Shown here in pieces: positions 7,372-33,164 of a stretch of DNA of 41,264 nt. The notes under the pieces were generated by a model that was not told the DNA's origin, searched no databases, and saw nothing but the letters and a program-made list of their open reading frames with translations. The translations under genes were made by a program, and so were the position numbers. The stretch comes from Candidatus Heimdallarchaeota archaeon (GTDB taxonomy: Archaea > Asgardarchaeota > Heimdallarchaeia > Heimdallarchaeales > Heimdallarchaeaceae): contig DAOVET010000016.1 of assembly GCA_030668825.1 (NCBI GenBank), positions 1 through 41,264 of the forward strand, written 5' to 3'. Within the stretch, counting starts at the first letter, position 1, and every line of letters starts with the position of its first letter.

Positions 7372-8271
7372 ATGAAGGTCACCTATGACAGGTATCCTGA
7401 ACTACCTAGATTCATCAAAACTTTCGTTGAATACACTGCTACTTCCTTAGCAACTAGGTCTTTCATTCTATTCGGGGATATCGTTTTAGATGATTTTTCA
7501 AAGAGATATAGTACAATTGATATTATTGTTATCTTAGAACGATCGCTCTGGGAAAAAGATTTCGATGAATTAGATATTATTATCAGCAAACTTGAAAATA
7601 TGAACAAGGATTTCGCAAAAATTCTCGAGGTTGTTTTTGTTCCTGTAGAAATGCTCGAAAATCCTAGAATGTCACATCAAGATTTTGAAGGGATGATTGT
7701 TCGTAATCTTCAACAAGAACTAATTAATAAATACCCCTTGTCTATGAAAGATGATTTTCTAATTATGAATAAAGGAGAAGTACTTTATGGTGAAGATCTA
7801 AGGAAGAATTTCCCAATTCCTCCCCTGGAATGCTTCTGGCACCAATTTTTAACAGAAATTCCTAAACTTGAGGAGATAACTAAATTATATCCTTTCCAAT
7901 ATACTAGTTCTCCTAATTATGATCTTGCTACAAATTGGATACTTAATCTGCCAGGGATCCTTTATTCTATCCAAAATAAGGATATTATTGGAAAAATGAA
8001 AGGTGCTTATTGGTTTTCTAATGAGTTTTATGGAAAACTTGGTGATTTTGTTGTAGAAGTTGCTAGTTGTAGACAGAGAAATGTTTCACTCTCAAGTGTG
8101 ATGAATGTTGTTGAAAACAGCAGAGATTTACTATTATTCACCTTAGAAAAGGCTTTTTCTGTTAAAGGTGTATCAATCCCTAAATTAACAGAGTTATTCA
8201 AAGTTGATAGTGGATATGCTAATTATAGTAGAGTTTTTATGGAGTTAAGAAATATAATAGAAAACTTGTAA
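7372..8271 (+). CDS. Pol-beta-fold nucleotidyltransferase-like protein (AadA/ANT-like), degenerate active site
   Basis: FILFGDIVLDDFSKRYSTIDIIVIL aligns with the hxGSxxxGxxxxxSDhDhh signature. Also has the GEVLYGED motif and a helical C-terminal domain with K..GAYW. Confidence 0.7.
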   Translation: MKVTYDRYPELPRFIKTFVEYTATSLATRSFILFGDIVLDDFSKRYSTIDIIVILERSLWEKDFDELDIIISKLENMNKDFAKILEVVFVPVEMLENPRMSHQDFEGMIVRNLQQELINKYPLSMKDDFLIMNKGEVLYGEDLRKNFPIPPLECFWHQFLTEIPKLEEITKLYPFQYTSSPNYDLATNWILNLPGILYSIQNKDIIGKMKGAYWFSNEFYGKLGDFVVEVASCRQRNVSLSSVMNVVENSRDLLLFTLEKAFSVKGVSIPKLTELFKVDSGYANYSRVFMELRNIIENL

Positions 8272-16623: not shown

Positions 16624-17613
16624 CTAAAAATCATACGAAGAAGCTAACTGCATATATTTTGTCGACAATGCTACAACCTTGTCTCTTGCTGCCCCTGGTT
16701 CCTCTTGGAGAACTTGAGAGTAATAGACTTTTGCTCTTACATATGCTCTATAAGATTTGTAAAAGTTAACTATTGGAGATTCAGATGTAAAATCACTATT
16801 GATTTCTTCAAGATACTCTTTCATAAATAATGCAGATAAATCATATAACCTGTGAAAATCTAAATCCATTGCGAGGAATGCAACTTCTTCGAGAATATCT
16901 TGGATTCTAAGCATTTCATTGAATTCAATACAATCAAAAATAATAATTTCTCCTTTGAAATAGAAGATATTTGCTAGAATCAAATCTCCATGGCCCTCTA
17001 CAATTTTCCCTTGATTGGAGCGTTCGTTAAAAAAGTTTCTATTTTTCTCCAAAAAATCAAACACTCTTGTTTCTAAATCTGAATCTAGCGGAAAGTCAGG
17101 ATAAGTTTTTGTTGTACGGAAATTTTCATCCCATTTTTCAAATATATTTTCATATAAAGAAAATTCAGGATGAATAGTGTTTTTCTTATGAAATTCAGCA
17201 ATGATTTTTGCCAGTTTAATGAAGATTACATCTGATAATTCTTCATTATTATTAACTTTATTTAATAACAAATCTTCTTGAGGTAATTGCTTCATTTTTA
17301 CTAGGTATTCTAATGGTTTACCTTCAGTGGAAAATTCTAAATTGTCATTAATTTGAACGATTTCCAGGTAAATAGAAGGAGCTAAGCGCTTATTGTAAAA
17401 AAGTTCATTTTTGCAAGCTTGAAACCTTTTTTCAATTGTGGAAAAATCCAAAATATCTCCAAATTTGAGTGATTTTTTCATTTTATATACATATAAACCA
17501 GTTAAGAAAACCCAACTTATATGGGTTTCAATCATCTGAATATCCTTGTTGGTTTCATGTGGATAAAATGATGATTTTTGCAAGTTATAAAGTATCTTTT
17601 CCTGTGATAGCAT
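16624..17613 (-). CDS. Aminoglycoside-phosphotransferase-like kinase (COG2187 type)
   Basis: IETHISWVFLTG..YK.KK, E...N.RLAP..YL, HGDL...NI, FDCIEFN and YRAYVRAKV. Probable start MLSQE at 17613. Confidence 0.88.
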   Translation of the reverse strand: MLSQEKILYNLQKSSFYPHETNKDIQMIETHISWVFLTGLYVYKMKKSLKFGDILDFSTIEKRFQACKNELFYNKRLAPSIYLEIVQINDNLEFSTEGKPLEYLVKMKQLPQEDLLLNKVNNNEELSDVIFIKLAKIIAEFHKKNTIHPEFSLYENIFEKWDENFRTTKTYPDFPLDSDLETRVFDFLEKNRNFFNERSNQGKIVEGHGDLILANIFYFKGEIIIFDCIEFNEMLRIQDILEEVAFLAMDLDFHRLYDLSALFMKEYLEEINSDFTSESPIVNFYKSYRAYVRAKVYYSQVLQEEPGAARDKVVALSTKYMQLASSYDF

Positions 17614-18163
17614 CGTTAATCCTTTCCAATATTTCATTATGTTCGAAAGCCATATTAACTTCAATATGTGGAAGTCTTGTTGGCTCAAATAGTTTCTTGA
17701 ATTTCTCATATATTTGTGAATCTGCATCACTTAGGGTTCGTCTAGTTCTCTTCTCTCTCTCTTTGAACCTTTTACTGATTATGCTATCAGGACAATCGAC
17801 TATTACAAGAACAAACATAGCGTCAAATCTTGCACAGATTCTTCTTACTTTACTGCGAAGCCTTTCTTGATAAAAAGTTCCATCTAGAACGCACCCCACT
17901 CCATTTTTCAAAAGTGTATAAAGCACATAATAGATTGTATCGTAAACTACCATTCTTTGCCTAGTACTATAAGAACCTCTACCAAATGTATTCCTTCTTA
18001 CATCTCTAAAAATTCTTTTTCTAACGGAATCTGTGCTTATATGCTCTAGTCCATATCTTCTTGCTAGTTTTCTTGCTAATGTAGACTTACCTGTCCCTGG
18101 AAGTCCTGCAAGTACTATCACAAGTGGTGGTTTTCTACGTGGTTTTGATGAGATATAATTCAC
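17585..18163 (-). CDS. AAA_33-family P-loop kinase (COG0645 type)
   Basis: GLPGTGKST, STDSVRK, VLDGTF and SDAD motifs. Confidence 0.9.
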   Translation of the reverse strand: MNYISSKPRRKPPLVIVLAGLPGTGKSTLARKLARRYGLEHISTDSVRKRIFRDVRRNTFGRGSYSTRQRMVVYDTIYYVLYTLLKNGVGCVLDGTFYQERLRSKVRRICARFDAMFVLVIVDCPDSIISKRFKEREKRTRRTLSDADSQIYEKFKKLFEPTRLPHIEVNMAFEHNEILERINDAITGKDTL

Positions 18164-21138
18164 TTCCTCTTAGAATGATCTGGACATCTATATTGTTCTT
18201 CTTCTTTAAACACGCCTTTCTTCACTCTCTTTTTTGAATGCTTACTGCAAATCACTTTACCACAGGTTGAACATTTGATGATATGATCCTCGCACACATG
18301 GTTATCACAGAAAGCACATGTGGTTCCCTTTTCAGATGATACAATATTTTTACAATATGAACAAACAACTGCGTGATCTGAGCATATTATTTCATGTGTT
18401 ATGCTATCTGTAACGGTATGATCTTGACAGAGAACACTTCCACAGACTGAACACACATCTGGAGTTGACACGAATAACATTTTTGCTGCTTGTTTTGTGA
18501 GACACAAATCACATAGTAAGTGAATCTCAGTACCTAGAACAGATTCAGCAATCCCATGAACATTAATTTTATTGCCTTTTGCATCTGATACAGCAATTTC
18601 AGCTAATGAAACTGGAATATAAATCAAAGCAGCATAGATGTCCCGTATTTCTGAACTTTTCGGAATAATGAATTCCTTCTTAGCGGTTAAACGAAGATTA
18701 TCTTCAATTAATCTGACTTTGGGGGATTCTTTAGCTATTTTGTTAATTTCCTTTATTCTAGCAATTGCTTTCTCCACATCTTTCACAAAGTTCTTCACAA
18801 CCTCAGGGCCAAATTTGATGGTTTCTACTGCTTTATTGTAATCAGTAACATCATTATTACTCTTGAATTTGTATTTATCCTCAATCAATGGTTTAAGAGT
18901 AACATAGAGAGCCTTTGCTTGCTCAATTTTTGCTGTAAACTGTTTCACTTTATTTCTTTTATTATCAATTTCCTTCCAGAGTGCATCTTTTTCCTTCTCT
19001 AATTCTTCTAACCAATTTTGTATTTCAGCTTCATGTTCTTTCTCAATAGTTACTAGTCCTTCTTTAATACAACTTTGCCAAGCTTGAACATAGAATGTTT
19101 GATCTATCAGGAGAACATCATGAAATGATTCAAGGATGGATTCAGGTTTTCTTTGAACTTCTAATTGTTTAATATTAGCTGATGATGCTGAGAATAAACT
19201 TCCAAGATTTTTCATTGGAAGGATTGAAATAAGTTCTTCAAATACTTCTTCAGCTTGAATTGGAATACTTGTTTGTCCCCAAATCTTCTCTTTGTCACCA
19301 AATTCTATACGATCTATTAAAGGAAAAATTCTTCTTATTGGTAGTTCAAGCAAAGCATTTTCCCATCTTTCTGCATTAGCATAATGAACTTTAAGTCTTC
19401 GCTTAGCCTTTATTTGAAAATCGAGATACAAAAAGGGAACATATGCAAGGTTGAGACTCTCGGTTCCTAGATAGTTTATTTTCCTAGTTCCAAAGAATTT
19501 TTCCAATAATTCTTTGAACTCTACTGGCTCATACATCAAGTACTGTTCTTTCATTGACTTGATTACATTAGTTAGGTCAATGGGTTCTAAGACTGAGATG
19601 TCAGATTCTTCTTCAATTTCATCTCTCTCCTCCGATTCGATTTCTTCAGTTGCTTTTCTTATTTCTTCTTCAACTGCATCGTCTTCATCATCAATAAGAT
19701 CTACTTGTTGGTCAAGCAAACTAGTAGTTTTAGTAAATTTTCTAATAGCGGATAATTCTTTTTCCAAATCCTCTAAATTAAGTTCTTTTTCAATATCTTC
19801 AAAATCCACAGAGTCAATATCATGATCATAATCACCTATCTGTTTGCATAAGGTTGCAGGTGGATACTCATACATTTTTGCTACATCTTCATCTGAAAGA
19901 GTTTGGTGAACTGAGTAGAGTCTTCTTGTAATAATGTGTACTGGAGCATTGAAATTATCTGGTGAAAGAATGTAAAATTCTCCACTCCTGAATTTTTGCA
20001 ATTGGTCTACTATGAATCTAGCTTCAGGGTGAGATTGAAGCATTTTGTCAACTATTCTCAAATCTTGAGGAGTGACGAATCTACCAAAGAGAAAGGTGCT
20101 CACTTGACCAAAAGATTTGTAATCTACATCGCTTATATTCTGAGTTGCTACCACCATAGATAAACCATATTTCCTGCCTTGTTTGAATAGAAGCTGTAAC
20201 CACTGTTTTGTAGGGGGGTTTTTTGGATGAGGTGGAATTAGTTGAGGTGGTCCTGCCAGTTCATCAATGTAAAAAATGAGTTGAGGATCTGTAGATGGGT
20301 TAGAGCGAATGTAAGTGTAAAGATTTTGAGCTAGGGTTGTAATGTAGAGTTCCCTTAGTCTTAGGTTTGAAAGAGTATTCATAAAAATTATAGCAATTCT
20401 GATTTTATTTGGATTAGTTGGGCGAATCAGATTTTGAACAGACAATTTTGGTCCTAGGTTGAATACAAGAGAAGAAGCTCCTACATTAATCGATTTTATT
20501 CTTTTTATTAGTGAATCCTTCTCTTTTTGTGATAATAAAGTCCTAATGCTTTCTGATAGATATGCTTTTTCTGTTCTAATCAAATCAATTAACATCTCAA
20601 AGTTAGCTATCAAAATGTCTTTTTCTAAACACTGATCAAAAAGAGAGACCAAATAAGCTTTTACTGCTCCCCCCTTTTCTGTATTAATTTTGTATTTAAG
20701 TACATTTACCATAGTTGTAGCAATACCATCTATAGCTAAAATTTTCTCCTCCTTGTCCAATTCTTGAGGAGGCATTATAAGAGGATTAATTGAAAGAGGA
20801 ATCCCTTTTTCAGATGCAGGTGTAAAAATTACAACTTCAACCTTATCTTTGTATTCATTGTAAAACTCCTCTGAAATGCCATAAGGTTTCAGTTTCTCAT
20901 AATCTTCAACCATAGCCAAGCAGCTTATATCGCCTTGAGGATCAATAATAATTGCAGGAATTTCATGTCTCACAGCTTCCTCAATAAGTATTTTACATGC
21001 GACTGTTTTACCTGATCCTGTTTGCCCAAAAACGCTTATGTGTTTATTTAAAGCCTTTAGAGGTAAAAATACATCTTCATCTGTAGAATGTTCTTTTCCT
21101 AAATAAAGAGAAGGATTGGATCTACCTGTATCTGACAT
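18160..21138 (-). CDS. HerA/FtsK/VirB4-superfamily ATPase with acidic linker, coiled coil and C-terminal Cys/His zinc repeats
   Basis: KHISVFGQTGSGKT, IIIDPQGD, FYIDE and KQGRKYGLSMVVATQ. C-terminal CxxC/CxxH repeats. Probable start MSDTG at 21138. Confidence 0.88.
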   Translation of the reverse strand: MSDTGRSNPSLYLGKEHSTDEDVFLPLKALNKHISVFGQTGSGKTVACKILIEEAVRHEIPAIIIDPQGDISCLAMVEDYEKLKPYGISEEFYNEYKDKVEVVIFTPASEKGIPLSINPLIMPPQELDKEEKILAIDGIATTMVNVLKYKINTEKGGAVKAYLVSLFDQCLEKDILIANFEMLIDLIRTEKAYLSESIRTLLSQKEKDSLIKRIKSINVGASSLVFNLGPKLSVQNLIRPTNPNKIRIAIIFMNTLSNLRLRELYITTLAQNLYTYIRSNPSTDPQLIFYIDELAGPPQLIPPHPKNPPTKQWLQLLFKQGRKYGLSMVVATQNISDVDYKSFGQVSTFLFGRFVTPQDLRIVDKMLQSHPEARFIVDQLQKFRSGEFYILSPDNFNAPVHIITRRLYSVHQTLSDEDVAKMYEYPPATLCKQIGDYDHDIDSVDFEDIEKELNLEDLEKELSAIRKFTKTTSLLDQQVDLIDDEDDAVEEEIRKATEEIESEERDEIEEESDISVLEPIDLTNVIKSMKEQYLMYEPVEFKELLEKFFGTRKINYLGTESLNLAYVPFLYLDFQIKAKRRLKVHYANAERWENALLELPIRRIFPLIDRIEFGDKEKIWGQTSIPIQAEEVFEELISILPMKNLGSLFSASSANIKQLEVQRKPESILESFHDVLLIDQTFYVQAWQSCIKEGLVTIEKEHEAEIQNWLEELEKEKDALWKEIDNKRNKVKQFTAKIEQAKALYVTLKPLIEDKYKFKSNNDVTDYNKAVETIKFGPEVVKNFVKDVEKAIARIKEINKIAKESPKVRLIEDNLRLTAKKEFIIPKSSEIRDIYAALIYIPVSLAEIAVSDAKGNKINVHGIAESVLGTEIHLLCDLCLTKQAAKMLFVSTPDVCSVCGSVLCQDHTVTDSITHEIICSDHAVVCSYCKNIVSSEKGTTCAFCDNHVCEDHIIKCSTCGKVICSKHSKKRVKKGVFKEEEQYRCPDHSKRK

Positions 21139-22942: not shown

Positions 22943-23089
22943 TATTTTACACCTTTTTAACAATCAGAAATCTGGAAAATAGTTTTAAAAACCTTTAGAT
23001 TGAAATGATTTTTCAGAAAGAACATAGAATCATAAAATTTCAACTGAATCTAAAGAAACTTAAAATATGAGTAAAGTATGAAACTATAA

Positions 23090-23749
23090 TTGCATAGGTC
23101 TAATACTCTGGTGATTACATTGAGTGGTACTATTCTTCTGACAGGTTTTGAACCTTTTGGGGGTTCAGACATCAATTCATCTATACTAGCATGTAGAGAG
23201 TATGAAAATAAATTAATAGAGGGATATACAGTAAAAGTCCTTGAAATCCCCTTACGATTTAAGGAGATTCGAACTACCATTGAGCAACTAATCCAATATG
23301 AACAGCCTCTAGCTGTCATTTGTACAGGACAATCATCCCGATATGGAATATCACTAGAACGTGTAGCAATTAATATTGCTGATGTGATCAAATCAACATA
23401 CAACTGTGGTGAATCCCCAAAGAACGAAATTCTAGCAAAAGATGCTCCAGCAGGATATTTTTCTACACTACCTTTACAACAGATTAAAAGAGATTTGGAA
23501 GAAAACAAAATTCCCGTTAATATTTCTAATAGCGCAGGTACTTATGGATGTAATCAGATTTTCTTCCATTTAATGCATTTTATAAATAATGAAAATCTAA
23601 ACATTTCCGCAGGATTTGTTCATGTTCCATCTTTACCTGAACAAGTTGTTGGTAAAAATCTTCCTTCAATGTCATTGGAACTAACAACGAAAGCTCTAGG
23701 AATCATTATCGGTTCAACAATTAAGCATATAAAAAAATCTGAGAAGTGA
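23090..23749 (+). CDS. pcp: Pyroglutamyl-peptidase I (start may be 23111 or 23120)
   Basis: LLTGFEPFGG, ERVAIN, SNSAGTYGCN and GFVHVP (Glu/Cys/His triad). Confidence 0.94.
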   Translation: MHRSNTLVITLSGTILLTGFEPFGGSDINSSILACREYENKLIEGYTVKVLEIPLRFKEIRTTIEQLIQYEQPLAVICTGQSSRYGISLERVAINIADVIKSTYNCGESPKNEILAKDAPAGYFSTLPLQQIKRDLEENKIPVNISNSAGTYGCNQIFFHLMHFINNENLNISAGFVHVPSLPEQVVGKNLPSMSLELTTKALGIIIGSTIKHIKKSEK

Positions 23750-23753
23750 TAAT

Positions 23754-24167
23754 ATGAAAGAGTACGAATATCTAGCTCTGAAAGATCACGAATTCATAGA
23801 AATGATTGATGCTATCTCCAGAGAAAGAAATACCCTAAAAGTTAAGAAAAAAACAGAGAAACAAATTACTTTGGCATGTCAAGTAGCTATTCCCGTTGCA
23901 TTTATCAAATTCTTCGTTCATCAACAAAATGGAAACCTTAAAGTTCAAAGAAAAATCAGCTGGTGGCCATTATTTGCTTTTACAATCCCCCTATTTTTAG
24001 CTATTGAAGGAATAATGGTTGGAATTTCTTTTGCTATTGACAACCATATATATTTCAGTTATATTCTGATAGCTTTAGCATGGGTTGTTGCAGTCATTTT
24101 TTTTACCTATCAGATTTTTGAAGAATTAGATCTTATTCTAAAAAAATTATATCGCGTTGAGGTGTAG
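23754..24167 (+). CDS. Hypothetical membrane protein (2 C-terminal TM)
   Basis: 137-aa ORF lying between pcp and the PHP gene in the same orientation. Confidence 0.7.
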   Translation: MKEYEYLALKDHEFIEMIDAISRERNTLKVKKKTEKQITLACQVAIPVAFIKFFVHQQNGNLKVQRKISWWPLFAFTIPLFLAIEGIMVGISFAIDNHIYFSYILIALAWVVAVIFFTYQIFEELDLILKKLYRVEV

Positions 24168-24170
24168 ACA

Positions 24171-25028
24171 ACGAAAATTGATATGCATAGTCACAGCAAT
24201 TTTTCAGATGGTATTTATTCACCAGAAGAATTGCTAGAATTAGCTCAAAAGGAAGATCTGAAGCTGTTTTCTATTACTGATCATGATACACTTGAAGGTA
24301 CCATTGTTGCTGAAAAGATAGCTGACAATTACTCTTTTGCATATCTTACAGGCATTGAATTATCTGCAAGATATGAACAAACAAAGATAGAAATTTTAGG
24401 ATATAACTTGGATTCTAAAAGCACAAGATTATTTGAGAAAATGACATTCCTTCAGGAAAAAAGAAATGAGAGAGTCTTTAAAATCTTGAAGAAATTAGAG
24501 GAAATGAATCTAGATGTTACATATGATGATATCTCAAAACAAATTGGAGGTGGAGTTAGTCCCGGAAGACCACATTTAGCCAGAGCGATGATCGAAAAGA
24601 AAATTGTAAAAACAATAAATGAGGCTTTTGAGAAATATCTTGGAAATGGAAAACCAGCTTATGTCAAAAGAGAAACAATAGCTCCCCAAGAGGCAATAGA
24701 ATTGATTCTAAGTGGAAATGGTACAGCTGTTCTTCCTCATCCATTGCTTGTTGAGGGTGAAAATCTACAGAAACTGGAGGAATACCTTGAATTACTAATG
24801 TCTTGGAAACTGGATGGAATTGAAGTTTATTATGATTACAACCATATTGAAACGTTTCTTCCAAAAAGAAAAATCAAAGCAGGAATCGAATTTCTTAGCG
24901 ACTATTGTAAAAAGAATGATTTACTAATAACAGGAGGATCAGATTTCCATGGGGATACTGGGAAGCTAGGATCAGTTAAGATCCCCAAAGAGGAAATTAA
25001 GAATATTTTTTCCTATTTTAACTTGTAA
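24171..25028 (+). CDS. PHP-domain phosphoesterase (TrpH/YciV-like)
   Basis: KIDMHSHSNFSDG, ITDHDT, GIELS, GRPHLA, LPHP and TGGSDFHG. Best start appears to be ACG at 24171, behind GAGGTG. Confidence 0.9.
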   Translation, partial: TKIDMHSHSNFSDGIYSPEELLELAQKEDLKLFSITDHDTLEGTIVAEKIADNYSFAYLTGIELSARYEQTKIEILGYNLDSKSTRLFEKMTFLQEKRNERVFKILKKLEEMNLDVTYDDISKQIGGGVSPGRPHLARAMIEKKIVKTINEAFEKYLGNGKPAYVKRETIAPQEAIELILSGNGTAVLPHPLLVEGENLQKLEEYLELLMSWKLDGIEVYYDYNHIETFLPKRKIKAGIEFLSDYCKKNDLLITGGSDFHGDTGKLGSVKIPKEEIKNIFSYFNL

Positions 25029-25394
25029 GAATTCCATACCTTTTGTAATAGTTCAGGATCATCAGAAAAAATATTATCGACACCCCATTCAAAAGGTTCA
25101 TCATGGTTTGTTCATCATTAATTACCCAAGGATGAACAGCTAAATTCAATTTATGGGCTCTTTCAATACTTTTCTGAGTAACAATTTTCAGAAAATTATA
25201 ATTAATAGGAACTTGAAAAACATAGAATTTTTTATGGGAGAATAATGTAAAGTGACCAAGAAAAGCTAAGACTTCTAGACGGTTTGCACTTGTAGGTATA
25301 CTCCATTGTACACTTATATCACTAAATCTCTTGATTTGTTTATGGTGAAACGAACCCAATAAAAACCAATCTTGAGTATTTGAAGAAATTATAG
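24939..25394. repeat. Left copy of diverged ~456-bp direct repeat (PHP 3' end + GDPD 3' half)
   Basis: Aligns to 30798-31254 with one 1-bp indel. 25241-25311 is identical to 31101-31171. Confidence 0.95.
25013..25394 (-). pseudogene. Truncated, frameshifted 3' fragment of GDPD
   Basis: GSFHHKQIKRFSDISVQWSIPTSANRLEV...VHPWVIND matches the 30872-31693 protein. There is no 5' half, and a 1-bp deletion near 25091 shifts the frame. Confidence 0.9.
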
Positions 25395-25520
25395 ATAAAA
25401 TAGTTTAATTCTAATTAACAGAAAAAAAAGAAAAAAGAGAAGACAAAATTGGTTTTCAATTGGTGGAATCGCTCCTCCAAGAGATGAGAATCTACAAACC
25501 TATAGATCTGTTTTCTACAC

Positions 25521-26576
25521 TCACTTCGCACCTTTATGTTTTGAATTAAGGCGTCTAAGAAAATTATTTTTTACACTTAAAGCTAATAAATAACCAATCA
25601 CTGATATACCTACACCACATAAAACATCGATTATAAAGTGATGATTGAAATAGATTGCTCCTAGGAATATAGCTATACTGTAGGGAATTGTTAAATATAG
25701 TGATTTTTTCCATTTTTGATGAATACACAAGGTTGCTGATAAAGCGTAAACAGCATGAACACTAGGGAATGCTGCAAAAGAGTTTTGTTCAAATGTTCCA
25801 TAATACCACGAAAAAATATTCACTCCTAAAATCTCATCGATTCTTCCTAGACCAGCTGTTATATTCTGGCTATAATCTAATGTAATATCAGGTTGAACAA
25901 AACCATATTGATTAATATACCAAGGAGCTGCTGCGGGAAAACTCACAAAGAGAATAAAGGAGAGTAATGTTACAGTGTAGAAAGTAATTACAAGAAATTT
26001 GAAGTTTTTCCCATCTCCTTTAAAATACAAGTATATCCCAAAAACTAAGGGAACAAAGGCATGTAATAGATAAATGCCCCCTAAAATAAGATCAATAGGA
26101 ATAGAATGTAAAGCTGAATAAAAACATTGATTAGGAGTCATTCCTCCAAAAATCCATCCAAATATTTTCATCTCTAAGTGATAGATTTCTCCTGTAAGAA
26201 CACGTGGATACAGTAAATTTCCTTTTATTTTTGACATTAACTCATAAGTAATCCAAAGTATGAAAAAAGGTAAACTGTTAATTAATAATGTAATAGGGGA
26301 TTTAGAGGTTTTAAATTTCATCAAATAAAGAACTGTAGAAAGAACAGCGAAAAAAATAAAAACAATCCCTGATAATAATGAAATAAATACAAGTCCTTCT
26401 CCATTCAAAATAATTAAAATAATATTAAAGAGAAGATAAATTGTAGCGAAAAAAATGTGATATTGTCCGCTTTTAAAATCTTGCATTATTTTCTTTGATA
26501 ACGGTGTTTGTGTAAGTGTTATTTTCTCTTCTAATTGTTTAGTTTCTCCATTTCTTCCCAATTCCAATTCTATCAC
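25521..26576 (-). CDS. PAP2-superfamily, Aur1/inositol-phosphorylceramide-synthase-like membrane enzyme
   Basis: YLLH, FPAAAPWY, AGLGRID, FAAFPSVH and YFNHHFIIDV match the Aur1/PAP2_3 conserved domains. About 8 TM. Confidence 0.85.
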   Translation of the reverse strand: MIELELGRNGETKQLEEKITLTQTPLSKKIMQDFKSGQYHIFFATIYLLFNIILIILNGEGLVFISLLSGIVFIFFAVLSTVLYLMKFKTSKSPITLLINSLPFFILWITYELMSKIKGNLLYPRVLTGEIYHLEMKIFGWIFGGMTPNQCFYSALHSIPIDLILGGIYLLHAFVPLVFGIYLYFKGDGKNFKFLVITFYTVTLLSFILFVSFPAAAPWYINQYGFVQPDITLDYSQNITAGLGRIDEILGVNIFSWYYGTFEQNSFAAFPSVHAVYALSATLCIHQKWKKSLYLTIPYSIAIFLGAIYFNHHFIIDVLCGVGISVIGYLLALSVKNNFLRRLNSKHKGAK

Positions 26577-26599
26577 TCCTTAATATCAATTTACTTATG

Positions 26600-26650
26600 A
26601 AAAAAAAAACGACCAGTACTTCTCTAATATTCTTCTGTTGCTGATCGTTT
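26600..26650 (-). terminator. Hairpin plus U-tract (bacterial-style intrinsic terminator) after the radical SAM gene
   Basis: On the - strand AAACGATCAG pairs with CTGGTCGTTT (one G-U pair) and is followed by a T-run. The loop is long. Confidence 0.45.
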
Positions 26651-26721
26651 GGTTATTCGTTTAAGGCTTGTTTTAAAAGATTCGAAAGTTCTCCTTATCT
26701 TTGTTCTAAATTTGTCAAACA

Positions 26722-28173
26722 TTATTGTTCCTCCTTTTTAGTCGATTCATAGTTAGTTTCTTCAATTAGTTCCTCGGTACCATCCCAATCAACATCCCAG
26801 TATCGGGGGGGTTTAAAATCAACAAAATGCGATAATTTGGTAGATTCACGTCGAATCCTATCGGCTACTGGTGCCCAATCTTTGGATGCTTGTTGACATT
26901 TATCAGTAAGGTAATCAACTGTTTCATTATCAATCATCTGAGTAGATTTTGCATTTGATTCATGCACCATCTCTTTCAGTGAATCAGGATTGTCAAGAAG
27001 AGGGCAAGGACGTAAATAGTTTTTATTGAATGGTTGTTTACGATTATATTGTCTAAATAATGGCGATTTCAAAGATTCCAACAAACTTACATCTTTGATA
27101 TTAACATTTGAATAATGAATAAAGGCACATGGTTCAACATCTCCATTTGCGTTGATATGTAGATAGCTTCTTCCTCCTGCTATACAACCTCTTGCATAAT
27201 CTCCATCATTCCAAAAATCAATTAAGAAAATAGATTTTGTTTCTCTAAATTTCCGAACTTGATGAAACATAAATTCTCTTTGCTCTGGAGTACTCATTAA
27301 TTCTATTATAGCATCTTTTCCAAGCGGCATATATGTAAATAACCATCCATAACTTGCACCCATCTCAATCATATAGTCGATAAATTCGTCTGATCCTATA
27401 ACATGTGTATTCTTATTGTGATAACAAGTAGAAATTCCAAACAAGACACGATGCTTCTTAAGAAGTTTCATGGCTTTTATTACCTTTTTATAAGTACCCT
27501 TACCTCGACGAAAATCGGTTTCTGCTTCAAAACCTTCAACACTTATGGCTAAAGTGAGATTTCCAACTTCAGCTAATGCCATAGCAAATTCTTCATCGAC
27601 TAAAGTTCCGTTTGTAAATGCCAAAAAGAAGCAATCTTGATGTTTTTTTGCTAATTTTAATAAATCGTTCTTTCTGATAGTTGGTTCTCCACCTGAATAT
27701 AGATACCAATAGATCCCTAAGTCTTTTCCTTCTAATATAATCCTATCCATTAGCTCAAAACTTAAGTTATCTGTTTTATCATATTCTGCGGCCCAGCACC
27801 CTTCACAGTTCAAATTACATGCAGATGTAGGATCCATAAGAATGGCTATAGGAACATTGCACTGGTTTTCTCTACTTATTTTGCGAGTCTTTTCAATCCC
27901 AACAAGTACTGTATTTACACCAAAATTCCGTACGAATAGTTTCATAGTTTTTGGATTTATATTTTCAAACGAATATAGAAGAAGCTTATACATAGGATTA
28001 CTTTCATCACGAAAAGCTTTGAAAGTTCTCTTTTGAATAGAATTCGCTGCAAATCGTTCAACACCAGAAATAAGCTTTGGAATATTTTTCTTTGGATTCT
28101 TTAAAGCATATCTAGTTGCCAAGTTTAAAACTGTCCTATTAATTGGGTTATTTTTACGTCTCATGTTTATCAC
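26722..28173 (-). CDS. Radical SAM enzyme with SPASM/twitch-like C-terminus, bacterial (anaerobe)-type family
   Basis: DPTSACNLNCEGC (CxxxCxxC), SGGEP, FTNGTL, GCIAGGRSYLHINANGDVEPC and RPCP. Confidence 0.92.
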   Translation of the reverse strand: MINMRRKNNPINRTVLNLATRYALKNPKKNIPKLISGVERFAANSIQKRTFKAFRDESNPMYKLLLYSFENINPKTMKLFVRNFGVNTVLVGIEKTRKISRENQCNVPIAILMDPTSACNLNCEGCWAAEYDKTDNLSFELMDRIILEGKDLGIYWYLYSGGEPTIRKNDLLKLAKKHQDCFFLAFTNGTLVDEEFAMALAEVGNLTLAISVEGFEAETDFRRGKGTYKKVIKAMKLLKKHRVLFGISTCYHNKNTHVIGSDEFIDYMIEMGASYGWLFTYMPLGKDAIIELMSTPEQREFMFHQVRKFRETKSIFLIDFWNDGDYARGCIAGGRSYLHINANGDVEPCAFIHYSNVNIKDVSLLESLKSPLFRQYNRKQPFNKNYLRPCPLLDNPDSLKEMVHESNAKSTQMIDNETVDYLTDKCQQASKDWAPVADRIRRESTKLSHFVDFKPPRYWDVDWDGTEELIEETNYESTKKEEQ

Positions 28174-28186
28174 TTCACCAGCATAT

Positions 28187-28251
28187 AAACAACTGTTTCA
28201 AACAAGTATTTAAATCTTTTGTTTCAAACAATAGTTTTAAATATGTGTTTA
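28187..28251. promoter_or_regulatory. Array of five 13-bp quasi-palindromic operators (AAAC-N4-GTTT) overlapping a TATA-like box
   Basis: Units start at 28187, 28200, 28213, 28226 and 28239, between the divergent radical SAM and TetR genes. Confidence 0.75.
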
Positions 28252-28432
28252 AATAATTCCTTCATGAGAGAAAACTATAAATTCAATTAAAATTGAGAGT
28301 TAGATTAGACATTAGCCTGTAGAAAAAACAGAAATACTAGATTAAGGAGTATACTTGAATGAGTTCCTAAAGGGCTTCGGTAAGATATAAGAGTGTTCAT
28401 TTGCTCAAATCATTATAATTGGAGAACTGACC

Positions 28433-29005
28433 TTGAAAAAAATAGTTTCTAAAAAAGAAAAAATTATTAATGCAGCACTTAAACTTATTGCTAAAAAGGG
28501 GAATTTAAATTTTACAATAAGAGAGGTTGTACTAGATGCAGATGTTAACATTGCTTCTGTAAATTATTATTTTGGAACTAAAAAAAAATTGATTCAAGAA
28601 ATTGAAAAAAAATTCATTGGAAATTTGCTAGAATTTCAGAATATACTAAAAGATACTCAAATTAAACCAAAACAGCGCCTTATCAAATGGACTAGTAATT
28701 TATTTGAATATATGATTGACAATCCTGGACTAATATCGATATTAAACAATAAACTTATTTTTACAGAAGATATAGATACTACCTTTAAGTTATTTCTGCA
28801 AGAAAATAATAAATATCTAGCTCAAATTATTAGAGAAATCACAAGTATTGAAGAAGAAATTTTAAAATTTAAAATAGTCCAAATTAATGCTGGTCTTTTC
28901 TTCCCTATGATCTTTGTTAATAATTCTGAAAACCTGTTTGGATTTTCTTTCAAGGATCTAGAAAATCGAAATAAATATGTCAAATCTATTATTGATTCAA
29001 TTTGA
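28433..29005 (+). CDS. TetR/AcrR-family transcriptional regulator
   Basis: KEKIINAALKLIAKKG...TIREV...ADVNIASVNYYFGTKKKL helix-turn-helix. Confidence 0.93.
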   Translation: MKKIVSKKEKIINAALKLIAKKGNLNFTIREVVLDADVNIASVNYYFGTKKKLIQEIEKKFIGNLLEFQNILKDTQIKPKQRLIKWTSNLFEYMIDNPGLISILNNKLIFTEDIDTTFKLFLQENNKYLAQIIREITSIEEEILKFKIVQINAGLFFPMIFVNNSENLFGFSFKDLENRNKYVKSIIDSI

Positions 29006-29108
29006 GTAGAATAGAGTTAATTGCTCTTGATTAAGAAAGTTAAGAAAAGAAAATTGATAATTTTATAATTGTCTTATACAATTAAATTAAGTTTCAAAAG
29101 GTGTTAAA

Positions 29109-30413
29109 ATGGTTAAAGTATCAAAAGAAAATGTGAAATATCTTTCATTTGAAGGGGGAGGAGGAAAAGGCGTAGCATATATTGGTGCTCTAGAAGTCAT
29201 GAAGGAGCTAGGTATTTTATCTTATTTTGATAAGGAAAAAGATAGTAAAACATACAAAAGGCTCAATCCTGACAAAATCATGGGTGTTGCAGGAACATCT
29301 GTTGGTTCAATAGTAGCTTTGCTTGTAGCTTGTGGGTATACGCCTGAAGAAATGCAAGATATTTTGATGACGAAAATAGGTTTAAACATTTTAGACACAG
29401 TAGAATTTGGTAAAATGCCTACTATTTATACAGAGGAGTACCAAGATATAGTCATTCAAGATCCAAGATTTAAAGATGTAGAGAAATTCATGAAAGCTTC
29501 ATGGTTAGAATATATAAAATCAGAAGATAAGAAATTAAGCAATTTAATGGAAATACCTGTTAATCGTATTCAAAGGAGAGGGATGCAATTCTTTTCGTTG
29601 ATCCTAAAAGGTTTCCTCAGTTATGAATCAAAAAAAACTTATTCTAAAGACTTGTCAAGCAAAATTAGTCCTTTTACTATCAAGGAATTAATTCACTCAG
29701 AGACAATAAACCCAGCAATAAAAAAAATTTTGCAAGAGCCAATCCATTCGTTTAATAGTTTAAAACACGAATATGGGTTATTTTTGGGTAAGACAGCAAG
29801 AGACATATTTGATTTATGGATTGAACAAAAATCTGGCGTACAAAACTGTACGTTTAAAATTTTTAAAAAGGAGTTTAATATAGATTTAGTTATACCTGCA
29901 GTTAGTGTAAATTCAAAAGAAGTATTTTATTTCAGAAATAATAGAAAATGGAAGAATCTATGTGTAGCAGATGCTGTAAGAATGTCAATAAACATCCCCT
30001 TCTTATTTAAACCTGTATTAATGAAGAAAACAAAAAAGGGAGTAAGCTCTATTACAGATAAGATTCATTTAGCTAATTTTATGATAGATGGAGGGGCAAT
30101 AAATAATTTTCCAATACATGCCTTTGACTCAAAAAATTCTACAAAGCTAAATCCTTCAGTCGTCGGATTATCTCTAGTACCTTATTATAGAGCAAAGAAA
30201 TCAGAAATTAATTCTCTAAGTGATTACATCAATTTTATAGGTTATATAATTCAAAAAAATGCAACAAAACTTCAAGTTTTACATGATGAAGACAAAGAAC
30301 AAATTATTGAATTGGATACTAAAGCAGTGAGCGTTTTTGATTTTGCATTTGAAGAAATTCCAGAAGATGTGAAAAAGGAATCTAGAACTAGAACATTAGA
30401 ATATTTCTCGTGA
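29109..30413 (+). CDS. Patatin-like phospholipase
   Basis: EGGGGKG oxyanion motif, GTSVG catalytic Ser, AVRMS..IP..F and IDGG catalytic Asp. Confidence 0.93.
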   Translation: MVKVSKENVKYLSFEGGGGKGVAYIGALEVMKELGILSYFDKEKDSKTYKRLNPDKIMGVAGTSVGSIVALLVACGYTPEEMQDILMTKIGLNILDTVEFGKMPTIYTEEYQDIVIQDPRFKDVEKFMKASWLEYIKSEDKKLSNLMEIPVNRIQRRGMQFFSLILKGFLSYESKKTYSKDLSSKISPFTIKELIHSETINPAIKKILQEPIHSFNSLKHEYGLFLGKTARDIFDLWIEQKSGVQNCTFKIFKKEFNIDLVIPAVSVNSKEVFYFRNNRKWKNLCVADAVRMSINIPFLFKPVLMKKTKKGVSSITDKIHLANFMIDGGAINNFPIHAFDSKNSTKLNPSVVGLSLVPYYRAKKSEINSLSDYINFIGYIIQKNATKLQVLHDEDKEQIIELDTKAVSVFDFAFEEIPEDVKKESRTRTLEYFS

Positions 30414-30682
30414 GCGCATACATTTCTGAAGTGATTTTAAGTTTCAGAAGATAATTCATTGTATATTTTTCTTCAATATTGTTGAAGATAAAAAAGGCCT
30501 TTTATAAGAAAAACTAGTTAAAAGAGAGAGAAAACAGCAGGAGAAAATAGTTTTCGAGAAGTTGATAGAGAAAACAGTTATCTTGCAGTTAAAGCTAGGT
30601 AGAAGAAAACGGTTACTCTTGTCTCAAACAACACATGCTGTAACAAACTTTGCTAACAGCCTTATTACTTTTAAAGACCAAG

Positions 30683-30796
30683 CTATGAATTATGTACAGT
30701 TTCACCATCAATCAAACCATTACTGTCCAGATTCCCTGATGAATCGTCTAATAGAGGGTTCAAATTATAGTTTATCTCCCAAGAATCACTCATTCC
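30683..30796 (-). pseudogene. Scrap of a Ca-binding DxDxDG (TSP3-like) surface-protein repeat
   Basis: Manual translation GMSDSWEINYNLNPLLDDSSGNLDSNGLIDGE, ending exactly at the repeat junction. Confidence 0.6.
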
Positions 30797-30797
30797 T

Positions 30798-31254
30798 TCA
30801 GATTTCCACAGGTATACTGGGAAGCTAGGGTCCGTTCGAGTTCCCAATAAGGAAATAAAGAATATTCTTTCCTACTTCAACTTGTAAGAATCCCACACCT
30901 TTAGTAATAATTCAGGATCATCTGAAAAAATCCCGTCTATTTCCCATTTAAAAAGATTCATCATAATTTGTTCATCATTAATTGTCCATGGATGAACAGC
31001 TAAATTCCATTTGTGGGCTCTTCTAATGCTTCTTTGAGTAACAATTTTCAGAAAATTATAATTCATAGGTACTTGAAAAACACAGAATTTTTTATGGGAA
31101 AATAATGTAAAGTGACCAAGAAAAGCTAAGACTTCTAGACGGTTTGCACTTGTAGGTATACTCCATTGTACGCTTATATCTCTAAATCTCTTGATTTGTT
31201 TTTGGTGAAATGAACCTAATAAAAACCGATCTTGAGCATTTGAAGAAATTATAG
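30798..31254. repeat. Right copy of diverged direct repeat (orphan PHP C-terminus + GDPD 3' half)
   Basis: The + strand encodes SDFHRYTGKLGSVRVPNKEIKNILSYFNL*, versus SDFHGDTGKLGSVKIPKEEIKNIFSYFNL* in the PHP gene. Confidence 0.95.
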
Positions 31255-31693
31255 CTTCGAGTATTTTTTCAGGAGCCTCTTTTAACTCATCTTTAATATC
31301 CATATTTACTCGAATTTTTGGAAATTTATCAAGAAATCCAACAAGCGAAAGAATCTTGAATTCTTTGTTTCTATAAGGATATTCCCAACTTTTAGAATCT
31401 TGATACCAATAGCCCAAATCATATGCTTGTAATTTATCAAAAGTATAGTCAATAATTGAACCAATTCCATTGGTAGTACGATCTAAAGATTCATCATGAA
31501 AAATCACAGGAATACCATCTTTTGTCAACCGAATATCTGTTTCCAGAACATCTACATCCAAATCATAAGCTTCTTTGAAGGATTGATATGAACTCTCTGG
31601 AGTGTAAGCACTTCTCCCTCTATGTGCTATAATCAACGGACGATCATTTTTTAGAAATGGAATGTTACTTCTCAGATAGACGGAACTTTTCAT
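30872..31693 (-). CDS. Glycerophosphodiester phosphodiesterase (GDPD)
   Basis: IIAHRG, PES, ETDIRLTKDG..VIFHD..LDRTT, NMDIK, VHPWTIND and DGIFSDDP. Confidence 0.94.
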   Translation of the reverse strand: MKSSVYLRSNIPFLKNDRPLIIAHRGRSAYTPESSYQSFKEAYDLDVDVLETDIRLTKDGIPVIFHDESLDRTTNGIGSIIDYTFDKLQAYDLGYWYQDSKSWEYPYRNKEFKILSLVGFLDKFPKIRVNMDIKDELKEAPEKILEAIISSNAQDRFLLGSFHQKQIKRFRDISVQWSIPTSANRLEVLAFLGHFTLFSHKKFCVFQVPMNYNFLKIVTQRSIRRAHKWNLAVHPWTINDEQIMMNLFKWEIDGIFSDDPELLLKVWDSYKLK

Positions 31694-31721
31694 GTTAGTT
31701 CACATTATTTATTACTGTAAA

Positions 31722-33164
31722 CTATTTCTCTTCTGCTTTATCTATAATCTCTTTTATTAGATAAAGCAATTGATCCATTGTTTTCTTCCCTATGTCCAAA
31801 GATTTTCCCGGTTCATGGAATAGTACATTCCTCTTGAATCTGATTTCGTGGAGTAAAGAAACTGCGTCTTTTGTAATCAATCTGTTCTTCTCTAAAATAT
31901 CGATTAATTTTATGAAATTAACATCTTCCTTCTCTAGTTCTGGATTTAAGTTGATTAAGGTTTTTCTGAAAACAGTTTCAAGAGTTCGATAAATAAGTAG
32001 GAAAGACAATGTTTGTTCTTCACTTCTGATTTTATCCCATTTAGAAATCTTCTCTTGAATATAATCTAAATCTGCTTTGATTGCTTGTTCTTCTTCTGAA
32101 GTCAAGATTTGACTGGAAATAATCTGTAAAAGAGGGTCATATTTGAATTGTTTCTCAATCTGTTCTCTTGCTTCTTCAGGTATTTTAATTTCTTCTAATA
32201 CTTCTTTGTATAGTTTCCACGCTATAGATTTAGCCATTCCATCTCTATAATACCAAGATATAGTTTCAACCAATTTCGAGAGAAGTAAACTCTTCTTAGC
32301 TTCATAGATTATACCAGATAAATCCCTTTGAGTCCTTCGAACAAAAAGATTACTTATTGGAAATTCAGCAATAGACAAAATTTGAATCAATCTTCTTTCT
32401 CTCTCAATTTCAGGTTCATAATAGATAATTGGAACTATCCTTGGAATTAGACGACATAATGTTCTAGATGATGTAAAGAAGAGAAATAAACCAAAGAAAA
32501 GTAACAATCCAAAAATCAAAGAGAATATGAGTACATTAACTGAATTTGTGATCTGATCCAATTCAATGAAATCAAGTTTAATACTAGTTCCTCGCAGAAT
32601 AATGACCAGTATCAAGTTCATAAAAAGTAATGCAGAAGTAACCCCACTAAACAGAAATAGTGCTTCATTATATGTTAACAGCCTTTGATTTCTTGAACTA
32701 TGGCTTCTATCAACGAAATTTTGAGAATATTGTTTTCTTGCTTCTTTAACTAAATCTGGAATAACTTTTGTTTCAATCTTGTTTTTCAAAAGCTTTATTT
32801 CCTTATTTTTAAGAATATACTCCATATCTTCAAGAGGAACAGCTTTCTCACGAATCTTTAGTCGCCTAGGCTTAAGGAATATACTTTCTAGATTGATTTT
32901 TAGATTATTAGTTATGTGTTTCTTAACTCCTCCGAAGAAGAAAACCAATCTTGGAGATATGATATAGAGGAAAATAATTGGTATTATTAGAAAGATGAAT
33001 AAAAGCAGTGAGGAAAATTGATAATCTTGGGTTCGTAACCCGGTATAAATTATATAAACAAAAATCTCTATTAGGAAAGGTAGAATTAGACCAAATAATA
33101 CCCTAAGCAACATATACCATATATTAGCACCAGGTTTAGAACCAGTCAAAGCTTGATAAGTCAT
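31722..33164 (-). CDS. 4-TM membrane protein with C-terminal HEPN-like domain
   Basis: Two TM pairs and a C-terminal helical domain with YRTLE...RFKRNVLFH (RxxxxH). Probable start MTYQ at 33164. Confidence 0.7.
   Translation of the reverse strand: MTYQALTGSKPGANIWYMLLRVLFGLILPFLIEIFVYIIYTGLRTQDYQFSSLLLFIFLIIPIIFLYIISPRLVFFFGGVKKHITNNLKINLESIFLKPRRLKIREKAVPLEDMEYILKNKEIKLLKNKIETKVIPDLVKEARKQYSQNFVDRSHSSRNQRLLTYNEALFLFSGVTSALLFMNLILVIILRGTSIKLDFIELDQITNSVNVLIFSLIFGLLLFFGLFLFFTSSRTLCRLIPRIVPIIYYEPEIERERRLIQILSIAEFPISNLFVRRTQRDLSGIIYEAKKSLLLSKLVETISWYYRDGMAKSIAWKLYKEVLEEIKIPEEAREQIEKQFKYDPLLQIISSQILTSEEEQAIKADLDYIQEKISKWDKIRSEEQTLSFLLIYRTLETVFRKTLINLNPELEKEDVNFIKLIDILEKNRLITKDAVSLLHEIRFKRNVLFHEPGKSLDIGKKTMDQLLYLIKEIIDKAEEK

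Follow-up and report, generated by a model that had tools for sequence, protein, structure and literature searches.

How does a four-gene cassette come to lie between two genes whose 3' ends overlap, with both genes left unbroken? The question is raised by contig DAOVET010000016.1 of the Candidatus Heimdallarchaeota archaeon assembly GCA_030668825.1, which was analysed over its entire 41,264 nucleotides (hereafter the window; it is the whole of contig C48 of the studied genome, G000, which has 2.76 Mb in 138 contigs at 33% G+C). An earlier note on this DNA, made from the sequence alone, had described an island bracketed by a diverged direct repeat of two gene ends and had read it as gene gain from a related lineage. 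The island is an insertion with exact boundaries, in which recombinase genes were not found; it is flanked by a mosaic repeat and carries cargo of intra-genus origin under purifying selection. As to how it arose, we lean, with modest confidence, towards a homology-driven (Campbell-type) integration that displaced a gene tail, the incoming cassette having supplied replacement tails of its own.

The genes concerned encode a PHP-domain phosphoesterase and a glycerophosphodiester phosphodiesterase family protein (GDPD). They converge, their 3' ends overlapping by roughly 10-16 nt, and this pair of ends occurs twice in the window:

24939..25395, unstranded: left copy of the 456-bp direct repeat, holding the PHP end and a GDPD tail (repeat search, alignment, whole-genome search)
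30798..31254, unstranded: right copy of the 456-bp direct repeat (repeat search, alignment, whole-genome search)
25241..25311, unstranded: 71-nt run identical in the two copies, the likely crossover or conversion zone (permutation p=0.003)
24183..25028, plus strand: intact PHP-domain phosphoesterase gene, 281 aa, its last 90 nt inside the left copy (Pfam PF02811; full-length orthologues in relatives)
25018..25398, minus strand: orphan GDPD stump covering residues ~146-273, with a 1-nt deletion near 25093 and the N-terminal half gone (translation)
30798..30887, plus strand: orphan 30-codon PHP end with three changes unique to this copy, G>R, D>Y and E>K (translation, alignment)
30872..31693, minus strand: intact GDPD gene, 273 aa, its tail inside the right copy (Pfam PF03009, 243/244 positions)

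A whole-genome search found these to be the sole two copies of the 456-bp segment in the genome, 88% identical to each other (E 4e-164). The repeat search reported the match in two parts, 24939-25094 against 30798-30953 at 81% and 25083-25382 against 30943-31242 at 91%, with a spacing of 5859/5860, and in the alignment 54 of 455 aligned sites differ in addition to one 1-nt indel. The edges are sharp, at 25395/25396 on the left and 30797/30798 on the right. The longest identical block between the copies is the 71-nt run (25241-25311 against 31101-31171), a length reached in only 0.3% of 20,000 shuffles of the 54 differences. The structural account given in the earlier note is thus borne out: the repeat of PHP and GDPD ends some 5.86 kb apart is present where it was placed, the identical stretch was recovered by alignment, and the 16 differences that the note had counted in the PHP part were counted again, over 89 aligned nt. 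Translations agree as well with an intact PHP end and a frameshifted GDPD stump on the left, and an orphan PHP stump and an intact GDPD gene on the right. In a tblastn-type comparison the GDPD stump matches at 86% over residues 146-249 and, in another frame, at 77% over residues 248-273, while the GDPD orthologues of four sister species are 86-87% identical to the intact protein. The PHP protein gave sub-threshold NCBIfam matches to nucleoside bisphosphate phosphatase / RNase RNM.

The added unit measures 5.86 kb and comprises one 456-bp repeat and a 5.4-kb insert, the latter consisting of a four-gene cassette core (25564-30480) and two junk joints:

25396..25563, unstranded: left junk joint, 168 nt, which gives the PAP2 gene its last ~14 codons (sequence comparison)
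25521..26576, minus strand: cargo 1, PAP2_3-family membrane phosphotransferase/phosphatase, 351 aa (Pfam PF14378, PF01569)
26722..28173, minus strand: cargo 2, radical SAM / SPASM enzyme, 483 aa (Pfam PF04055, PF13186)
28433..29005, plus strand: cargo 3, TetR-family regulator, 190 aa (Pfam PF00440)
29109..30413, plus strand: cargo 4, patatin-like phospholipase, 434 aa (Pfam PF01734)
30481..30797, unstranded: right junk joint, 317 nt, unique to G000 save for a 25-27-nt remnant in the sister genome G009 (sequence comparison)

The four cargo genes form a lipid-related cassette. The PAP2 protein has a sub-threshold NCBIfam match to phosphoinositol dihydroceramide synthase; solved SPASM enzymes match the radical SAM protein distantly only, and its NCBIfam matches are likewise sub-threshold. 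Two more specific assignments were dropped: a role in defence, for which PADLOC returned merely generic radical-SAM and phospholipase matches, and the identity of the radical SAM enzyme as a tetraether synthase, for which there was just a 25-bit match to the radical-SAM core of 7TOL. The G+C content of the cargo (30.3%) hardly differs from that of the flanks (32-33%) and is uninformative on origin. The left junk has a 91% match in G009 and no counterpart in the other genomes searched; blastn (word 7) and tblastx comparisons with all of G000 and the retrieved loci returned low-complexity matches only. In the right junk, positions 30701-30796 (minus strand) correspond to a 32-residue fragment of a gene for a calcium-binding-repeat surface protein, resembling the Asp-rich calcium-binding repeats in three large secreted proteins that G000 encodes on C107, C85 and C127. 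Since neither joint has a genus counterpart and the right one ends in a gene fragment, the inserted DNA was already a patchwork.

A comparison with 24 other genomes of the genus (labelled G003, G005 and so on) shows what the locus looked like before the insertion. PHP abuts GDPD at an uninterrupted junction in 15 of the 24, namely the four sister species G018, G013, G012 and G024 and 11 more distant members; a sixteenth, G022, is uninterrupted as far as its contig end, 93 nt into GDPD. The earlier note's insertion at a once-uninterrupted PHP/GDPD locus is confirmed by these empty sites. In the four sister species the genes pcp, orf137, PHP, GDPD, orf515 and orf367 are colinear with the window, and in each a single segment matches both repeat copies, reaching 25394 on the one side and starting from 30799 on the other. 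The five sister genomes are ~92-96% identical to G000 in two other 20-kb regions. One genome (G009) holds the same island, one (G006) a different island, and in three (G003, G015, G021) PHP faces orf515, GDPD being gone; the locus state was left out for G010, G016 and G020, where the GDPD query gave no orthologue.

In the sister genome G009 the cargo is 95-98% identical at the nucleotide level, and the left junction and left junk are those of G000. It is missing positions corresponding to 25035-25287 and nearly all of 30428-31667; what remains on the right side is the 25-27-nt piece of right junk, some 26 nt from the start of GDPD, and orf515. G009 is thus a decayed descendant of an arrangement like that of the window, and its joined arrangement places the cargo in the chromosome. 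G006 (C87, 1081-6138) has a different 5-kb insert between PHP and GDPD, which encodes a NosD/beta-helix protein, a TPR protein and two unknowns, and a much-decayed PHP stump of ~115 nt lies on its GDPD side. An insertion duplicating the overlapping ends has therefore occurred twice at this spot. As a separate observation, GDPD has been lost in G009 as well as in G003, G015 and G021, which suggests that the locus can do without it.

Where the cargo came from is seen from its other occurrences. The cassette core is found elsewhere in the genus in other surroundings: at 86% nucleotide identity in G008:C47, at 85-86% and 78% in G005:C43, and at 78% and 67% in G008:C3. At these places its neighbours include DegV and MMPL genes, and the region, bounded by an epimerase gene on one side and IMPDH on the other, is variable. 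Searches of the four empty-site sisters did not find the core. The cargo proteins are 77-87% identical to those of G008:C47 and G005:C43, while flanking orthologues of the same species are 41-68% identical. Such an excess of likeness in the cargo over the flanks means transfer within the genus, and so upholds the gain from a related lineage that had been claimed. Between G000 and G009 the cargo shows a synonymous divergence (dS) of 0.06-0.16 and a ratio of non-synonymous to synonymous divergence (dN/dS) of 0.17-0.22, the latter indicating that the cargo is kept by selection. Ordinary flanking genes of the same two genomes have a dS of 0.17-0.31, above that of the cargo, and as judged from this lower cargo dS the island may have passed between the two lineages after their split. 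A protein-based patatin scan and an exact-pattern scan for the right end of the cargo gave no match in public metagenome contigs, and so yielded neither a donor setting nor a free form of the element.

Parts of the cassette and its neighbours occur in further configurations. G005 carries the PAP2 and radical SAM pair alone as an extra copy. On G008:C47, a 235-nt direct repeat (6108-6342 and 7800-8034, 85%) surrounds formate/nitrite transporter and glutaredoxin genes beside the cassette, with a third copy, at 60%, on the cassette's other side.

The divergence between the two repeat copies is itself uneven. Left of position 25175, 43 of 235 sites differ (18%), and right of it 11 of 220 (5%; max-chi2 p=0.001), so that the uniform divergence which the earlier note had implied does not hold. 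In a tree of the right zone the two copies form a clade with support 98/97, the stump branch being 0.040 long against 0.014 for the other copy; in a tree of the left zone they form no clade, and both fall in an unresolved star of species alleles. The GDPD tails of the left and right copies differ at dS 0.55 with dN/dS 0.18, values like those among working GDPD orthologues (dS 0.37-0.56, dN/dS 0.14-0.22), and the PHP ends at dS 0.76 with dN/dS 0.16; dS in the mid part of the repeat is just 0.10. Free decay of the stump halves after a local duplication would give a dN/dS of ~0.6 or more. A codon test on the left zone yielded p=0.002 against an omega of 0.59 and p=2e-6 against an omega of 1, so that free decay of this kind, for which the earlier note had named an even spread of substitutions over codon positions as the mark, is rejected. 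A dN/dS of 0.16-0.18 at between-species divergence implies that the left zones evolved as working gene ends in separate lineages. The right-zone copies are each other's closest relatives, and this zone therefore did not diverge in that way. The proposal that both copies had diverged under selection before being joined accordingly stands for the left 235 nt and fails for the right 220 nt.

The same comparison separates two periods. Relative to the four empty-site species, the GDPD stump shows an excess of 6.8 non-synonymous and 1.7 synonymous changes; their ratio of 4:1 is near-neutral, and together they come to 3.8% per nt. This excess equals the stump's right-zone branch, which means that the stump has been free of selection for only ~4% divergence. 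The remaining left-zone difference, ~11%, arose while both versions ended working genes in separate lineages. When the left-zone differences were polarised with four outgroups, 27 of 56 sites were ambiguous and the foreign copy was indistinguishable from the native one.

The surroundings of the repeat have a history of exchange as well. Among six sister species dS is 0.33-0.7 from orf137 through the GDPD tail and exceeds 1 in the PHP end, against 0.15-0.3 in ordinary flanks; within window positions 23750-31330 synonymous divergence is raised two- to four-fold, from orf137 via PHP to about GDPD codon 125-146, and it falls again ~10-70 nt past the right repeat boundary. G018 and G009, two different species, have identical pcp genes (dS 0), with neighbouring genes at dS 0.15-0.45. 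Such identity marks a recent import by recombination between species, and interspecies homologous recombination is clearly active around the site.

These data have led us to propose a model in which the 5.86-kb unit would have been inserted where the convergent PHP and GDPD genes overlap at their 3' ends, in a lineage common to G009 or exchanging DNA with it; the process would have been homology-dependent recombination carried out by host enzymes. A molecule with the cassette adjoining a copy of the PHP end and GDPD tail would have recombined with the resident segment, and the exchange, whether crossover or heteroduplex, would have lain in the GDPD-proximal ~220 nt that hold the 71-nt identical run. 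One GDPD tail would thereby have been left as an orphan beyond the cargo, to be frameshifted later, while GDPD now reads into the other tail; the 30-codon PHP end would have been carried along as a passenger stump of the incoming molecule. We infer, rather than observe, the form of that molecule (circle or linear) and the enzymes involved, and the same applies to the single crossover and the uptake of DNA of which the earlier note spoke. Given the overlap of PHP and GDPD, both genes can stay intact only if an insertion duplicates their ends, and this constraint may explain why both islands at the site, in G000 and in G006, carry end duplications. A crossover where the copies are now most alike would fuse GDPD to the frameshifted tail, so the island is not freely reversible without cost.

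In Campbell-type integration, a single homologous crossover joins a circular molecule to the chromosome. The locus shares with it the direct duplication, on either side of the insert, of just the segment common to both partners, a target that is single-copy in relatives, and independence of an element-encoded recombinase. The repeat copies may also be hybrids around a crossover point, as the breakpoint near 25175 and the 71-nt run would suggest, but the right zone is near-identical rather than reciprocally diverged, and five derived sites shared by the copies lie at the far left. The locus departs from the simple Campbell case in the uneven divergence between the copies, in that no circular form was seen, and in that the molecule must carry a 456-bp piece spanning two gene ends. 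The proposed geometry would be equivalent to the "C-terminal displacement" described for rhs, contact-dependent inhibition (CDI) and type VI secretion system (T6SS) effector-immunity loci, where homology-facilitated illegitimate recombination leaves orphan 3' ends (PMC5361080). There, as here, a module anchored by a conserved stretch swaps a 3' end; the displaced end persists downstream as an orphan, while the tail that takes its place derives from another lineage. Arrays of stumps can accumulate at such loci (PMC5361080), as at the FTHFS locus of the sister species here. The corresponding feature of the window is the stump at 25018-25398, whose tail differs from its counterpart at the dS and dN/dS given above with no clade between them. 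Homology-facilitated illegitimate recombination would form one homologous and one illegitimate junction in a single event; here both outer ends of the insert are non-homologous joints. Unlike the polymorphic toxins of those loci, PHP and GDPD are ordinary enzymes; the window's cargo, moreover, is a metabolic or regulatory cassette rather than an immunity gene, and the duplicated unit spans two overlapping convergent genes.

Several points weigh against this model. Five sites at 24947-24962, within the repeat's first ~25 nt, are common to both copies and unlike all five sister genomes, and a single crossover in the right zone leaves them unexplained. Later gene conversion between the copies could equally have produced the similar right zone. 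A donor allele close to either left zone was not found among the 24 genomes of the genus, the first joining of cargo, junk and target copy into one molecule is unexplained, and the counts are small, with 49 substitutions in the left-zone codon test. Sharing of the island by G000 and G009 fits descent as well as transfer, the cargo dS lying below that of the flanks, yet all five sisters being alike at 92-96%. Public k=31 contigs end within the identical run and by themselves would also fit a circle plus an empty site. Finally, an in-place duplication with an imported ~200-nt foreign patch fits the mosaic as well.

This last explanation, to which we give a real but minor chance, holds that the ends were duplicated in place, for instance by template switching during replication or by staggered-break repair, into two identical copies, after which homologous recombination exchanged a ~200-nt patch (~24971-25174 or its right-copy partner) for a diverged allele of another species. 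Both ends of the repeat then look like sister copies, as the right-zone clade and the five shared derived sites suggest, and one patch accounts for the two, which makes it better than the Campbell-type reading on the sites at 24947-24962. It draws further support from the recombination between species seen at pcp and the raised dS from orf137 to the GDPD tail in all pairs, and from the second insertion in G006, whose target duplication has a different length. It needs, however, two rare events where Campbell-type integration needs one. A patch in the left copy would, by mere chance, have its left edge no more than 30 nt from the repeat boundary; one in the right copy would require a crossover within just ~30 nt of homology. 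The capture of cargo and junk is also left unaccounted for.

A self-comparison of G000 for direct repeats within one contig (150 nt or longer, spacing 1-30 kb) bears on the generality of the Campbell-type reading and on the next alternative. It listed 24 such repeats, mostly paralogous genes. Besides C48, there are four loci where the 3' end of a conserved gene is duplicated beyond recombinase-free cargo of 1.3-8 kb:

C27:8608-8866 and 16845-17102: FTHFS, 258 bp, 83%, spacing 8.2 kb
C39:646-889 and 5867-6111: peptidase M20, 245 bp, 81%, spacing 5.2 kb
C22:26535-26737 and 28058-28260: peptidase M20, 203 bp, 95%, spacing 1.5 kb
C29:22348-22540 and 23841-24033: ABC transporter, 193 bp, 96%, spacing 1.5 kb

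These loci vary among the sister species. Besides the full FTHFS gene, G012 (C41:19446-20311) and G013 (C61:2416-3262 and C19:2373-2966) have extra FTHFS 3'-end fragments of 590-880 nt, 75-86% identical, an arrangement that suggests stacked displaced tails.

Site-specific integration, by an integrase acting in trans or since lost, would make the 71-nt run an att core and the island an element with a replacement gene tail. The order of gene, cargo and displaced tail is the layout of integrative elements, the identical run is significant in the permutation test, and a serine recombinase (Resolvase) gene lies just past the C29 repeat, at 24400-25137. A precedent is the H47 island of Escherichia coli, which is small, lacks its own integrase and excisionase, and recombines in identity segments of extensive imperfect direct repeats (PMC3191183). 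The locus resembles H47 in its long imperfect direct repeats and in that recombinase genes were not found; mobility of H47 was shown experimentally, independent of homologous recombination and with functions supplied in trans (PMC3191183), whereas here, in an uncultured organism, no movement was seen, and the repeats are copies of host gene ends. Against a site-specific origin, no integrase gene or fragment was found in island or junk. Pfam, NCBIfam and PADLOC scans gave no integrase or transposase domain in any island open reading frame, six-frame searches against the G000 genome and the retrieved loci gave no recombinase in the junk joints, and no tRNA was found across the window, in line with the lack of integrase, transposase and tRNA att site that the earlier note had reported. 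The 71-nt run does lie in a gene tail, where an att core may be placed, but homology runs on both sides of it; no word of at least 10 nt is shared as a common att motif by the five repeat families of the genome, and the two islands at the site, in G000 and G006, differ in junction positions. A site-specific origin is therefore unlikely. A transposon or insertion sequence also differs from what is seen, there being no transposase found and a duplication of 456 bp, and the 25 longest of 40 inverted repeats in 23000-33000 include no pairing of the island ends.

An assembly artefact, either a strain chimera or a 5.86-kb circle threaded into an empty site via the 71-nt run, is very improbable. At least half of the sampled island words are present in 13 of 24 listed sequencing runs, and public Logan contigs (k=31) were compared for four of the runs, each from a different study. 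In all four the right junction (30797/30798) is bridged by contigs, and the listed contigs bridge the left (25395/25396) in two (X8 and X9), with depth flat over flanks and island in the four. All the contigs end within the identical run, at 25270/25291 and 31130/31151, which allows either pairing of the flanks. No joint of an excised circle or of a restored empty site was listed, which, with every contig ending there, speaks for neither arrangement. However, G009 has the cargo integrated at the same left junction, with its right side joined to the GDPD start and orf515, and holds a single repeat copy, free of such ambiguity; the other pairing, moreover, gives a frameshifted chromosomal GDPD, while the contig joins the lower-dN tail to the gene. 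Synteny with G009 and the frameshift under the alternative pairing favour the contig as assembled. That the repeat is an old local duplication decaying neutrally, as copies 12% diverged with one frameshifted might suggest, is scarcely credible given the synonymous excess in the left zone, the uneven spread of differences and the empty site in the closest species.

Two contigs in these runs are of interest in their own right. In run X9, a contig at depth ~40 (main ~100) links 28156 back to 25425 via 35 other letters, and may represent a tandem or circular form of the PAP2 and radical SAM pair, carried by a strain present alongside. Run X8 has one contig that agrees with the window from 25387 rightward and continues leftward into 255 unlike letters, so that another organism may hold the left junk and cargo in a different setting.

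Two papers on mobile elements of Heimdall and other Asgard archaea describe integrated viruses, aloposons and tRNA-targeting elements with integrases or transposases (PMC8813620, PMC11529989). The island shares with them the organism group and a flow of genes into the chromosome at defined sites, and differs in that those elements encode integrases or transposases and use tRNA sites; the terms "direct repeat" and "homologous recombination" are absent from both papers. A literature search, which was not exhaustive, turned up nothing closer than Campbell integration, displacement at rhs and T6SS loci, and H47. The locus is thus a real record of gene gain by recombination that is not unprecedented: it involves no new mechanism and follows the same logic as those three.

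Its value lies in offering a datable gene gain in a Heimdall-type Asgard archaeon that needs no mobile-element enzyme, with empty site, filled site, decayed descendant and likely source cassette all recorded within one genus. The repeat copies separate the ~11% of divergence under selection before the insertion from the ~4% of neutral decay after it, and the locus illustrates how DNA can be inserted between two overlapping genes leaving both unbroken. Taken with the four further loci, it suggests that related Heimdallarchaeal species exchange ready-made cassettes through plain homologous recombination. More tentatively, recombinase-free "homology-anchored" islands might spread cassettes between species, each with a replacement tail, entering and leaving by host recombination; the five loci in a 2.8-Mb genome, the stacked FTHFS tails and the locally doubled synonymous divergence would then be products of one route. 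If so, homology-anchored islands would be one of the main ways in which the closest archaeal relatives of eukaryotes gain genes.

Apart from the island, a stretch of ~1.4 kb at C20:31664-33093 has many copies, at 67-77%, in all five sister genomes and is probably a multi-copy gene family or an insertion sequence. On G008:C47, at 16965-19745, the IMPDH gene is split by an intein with LAGLIDADG domains.

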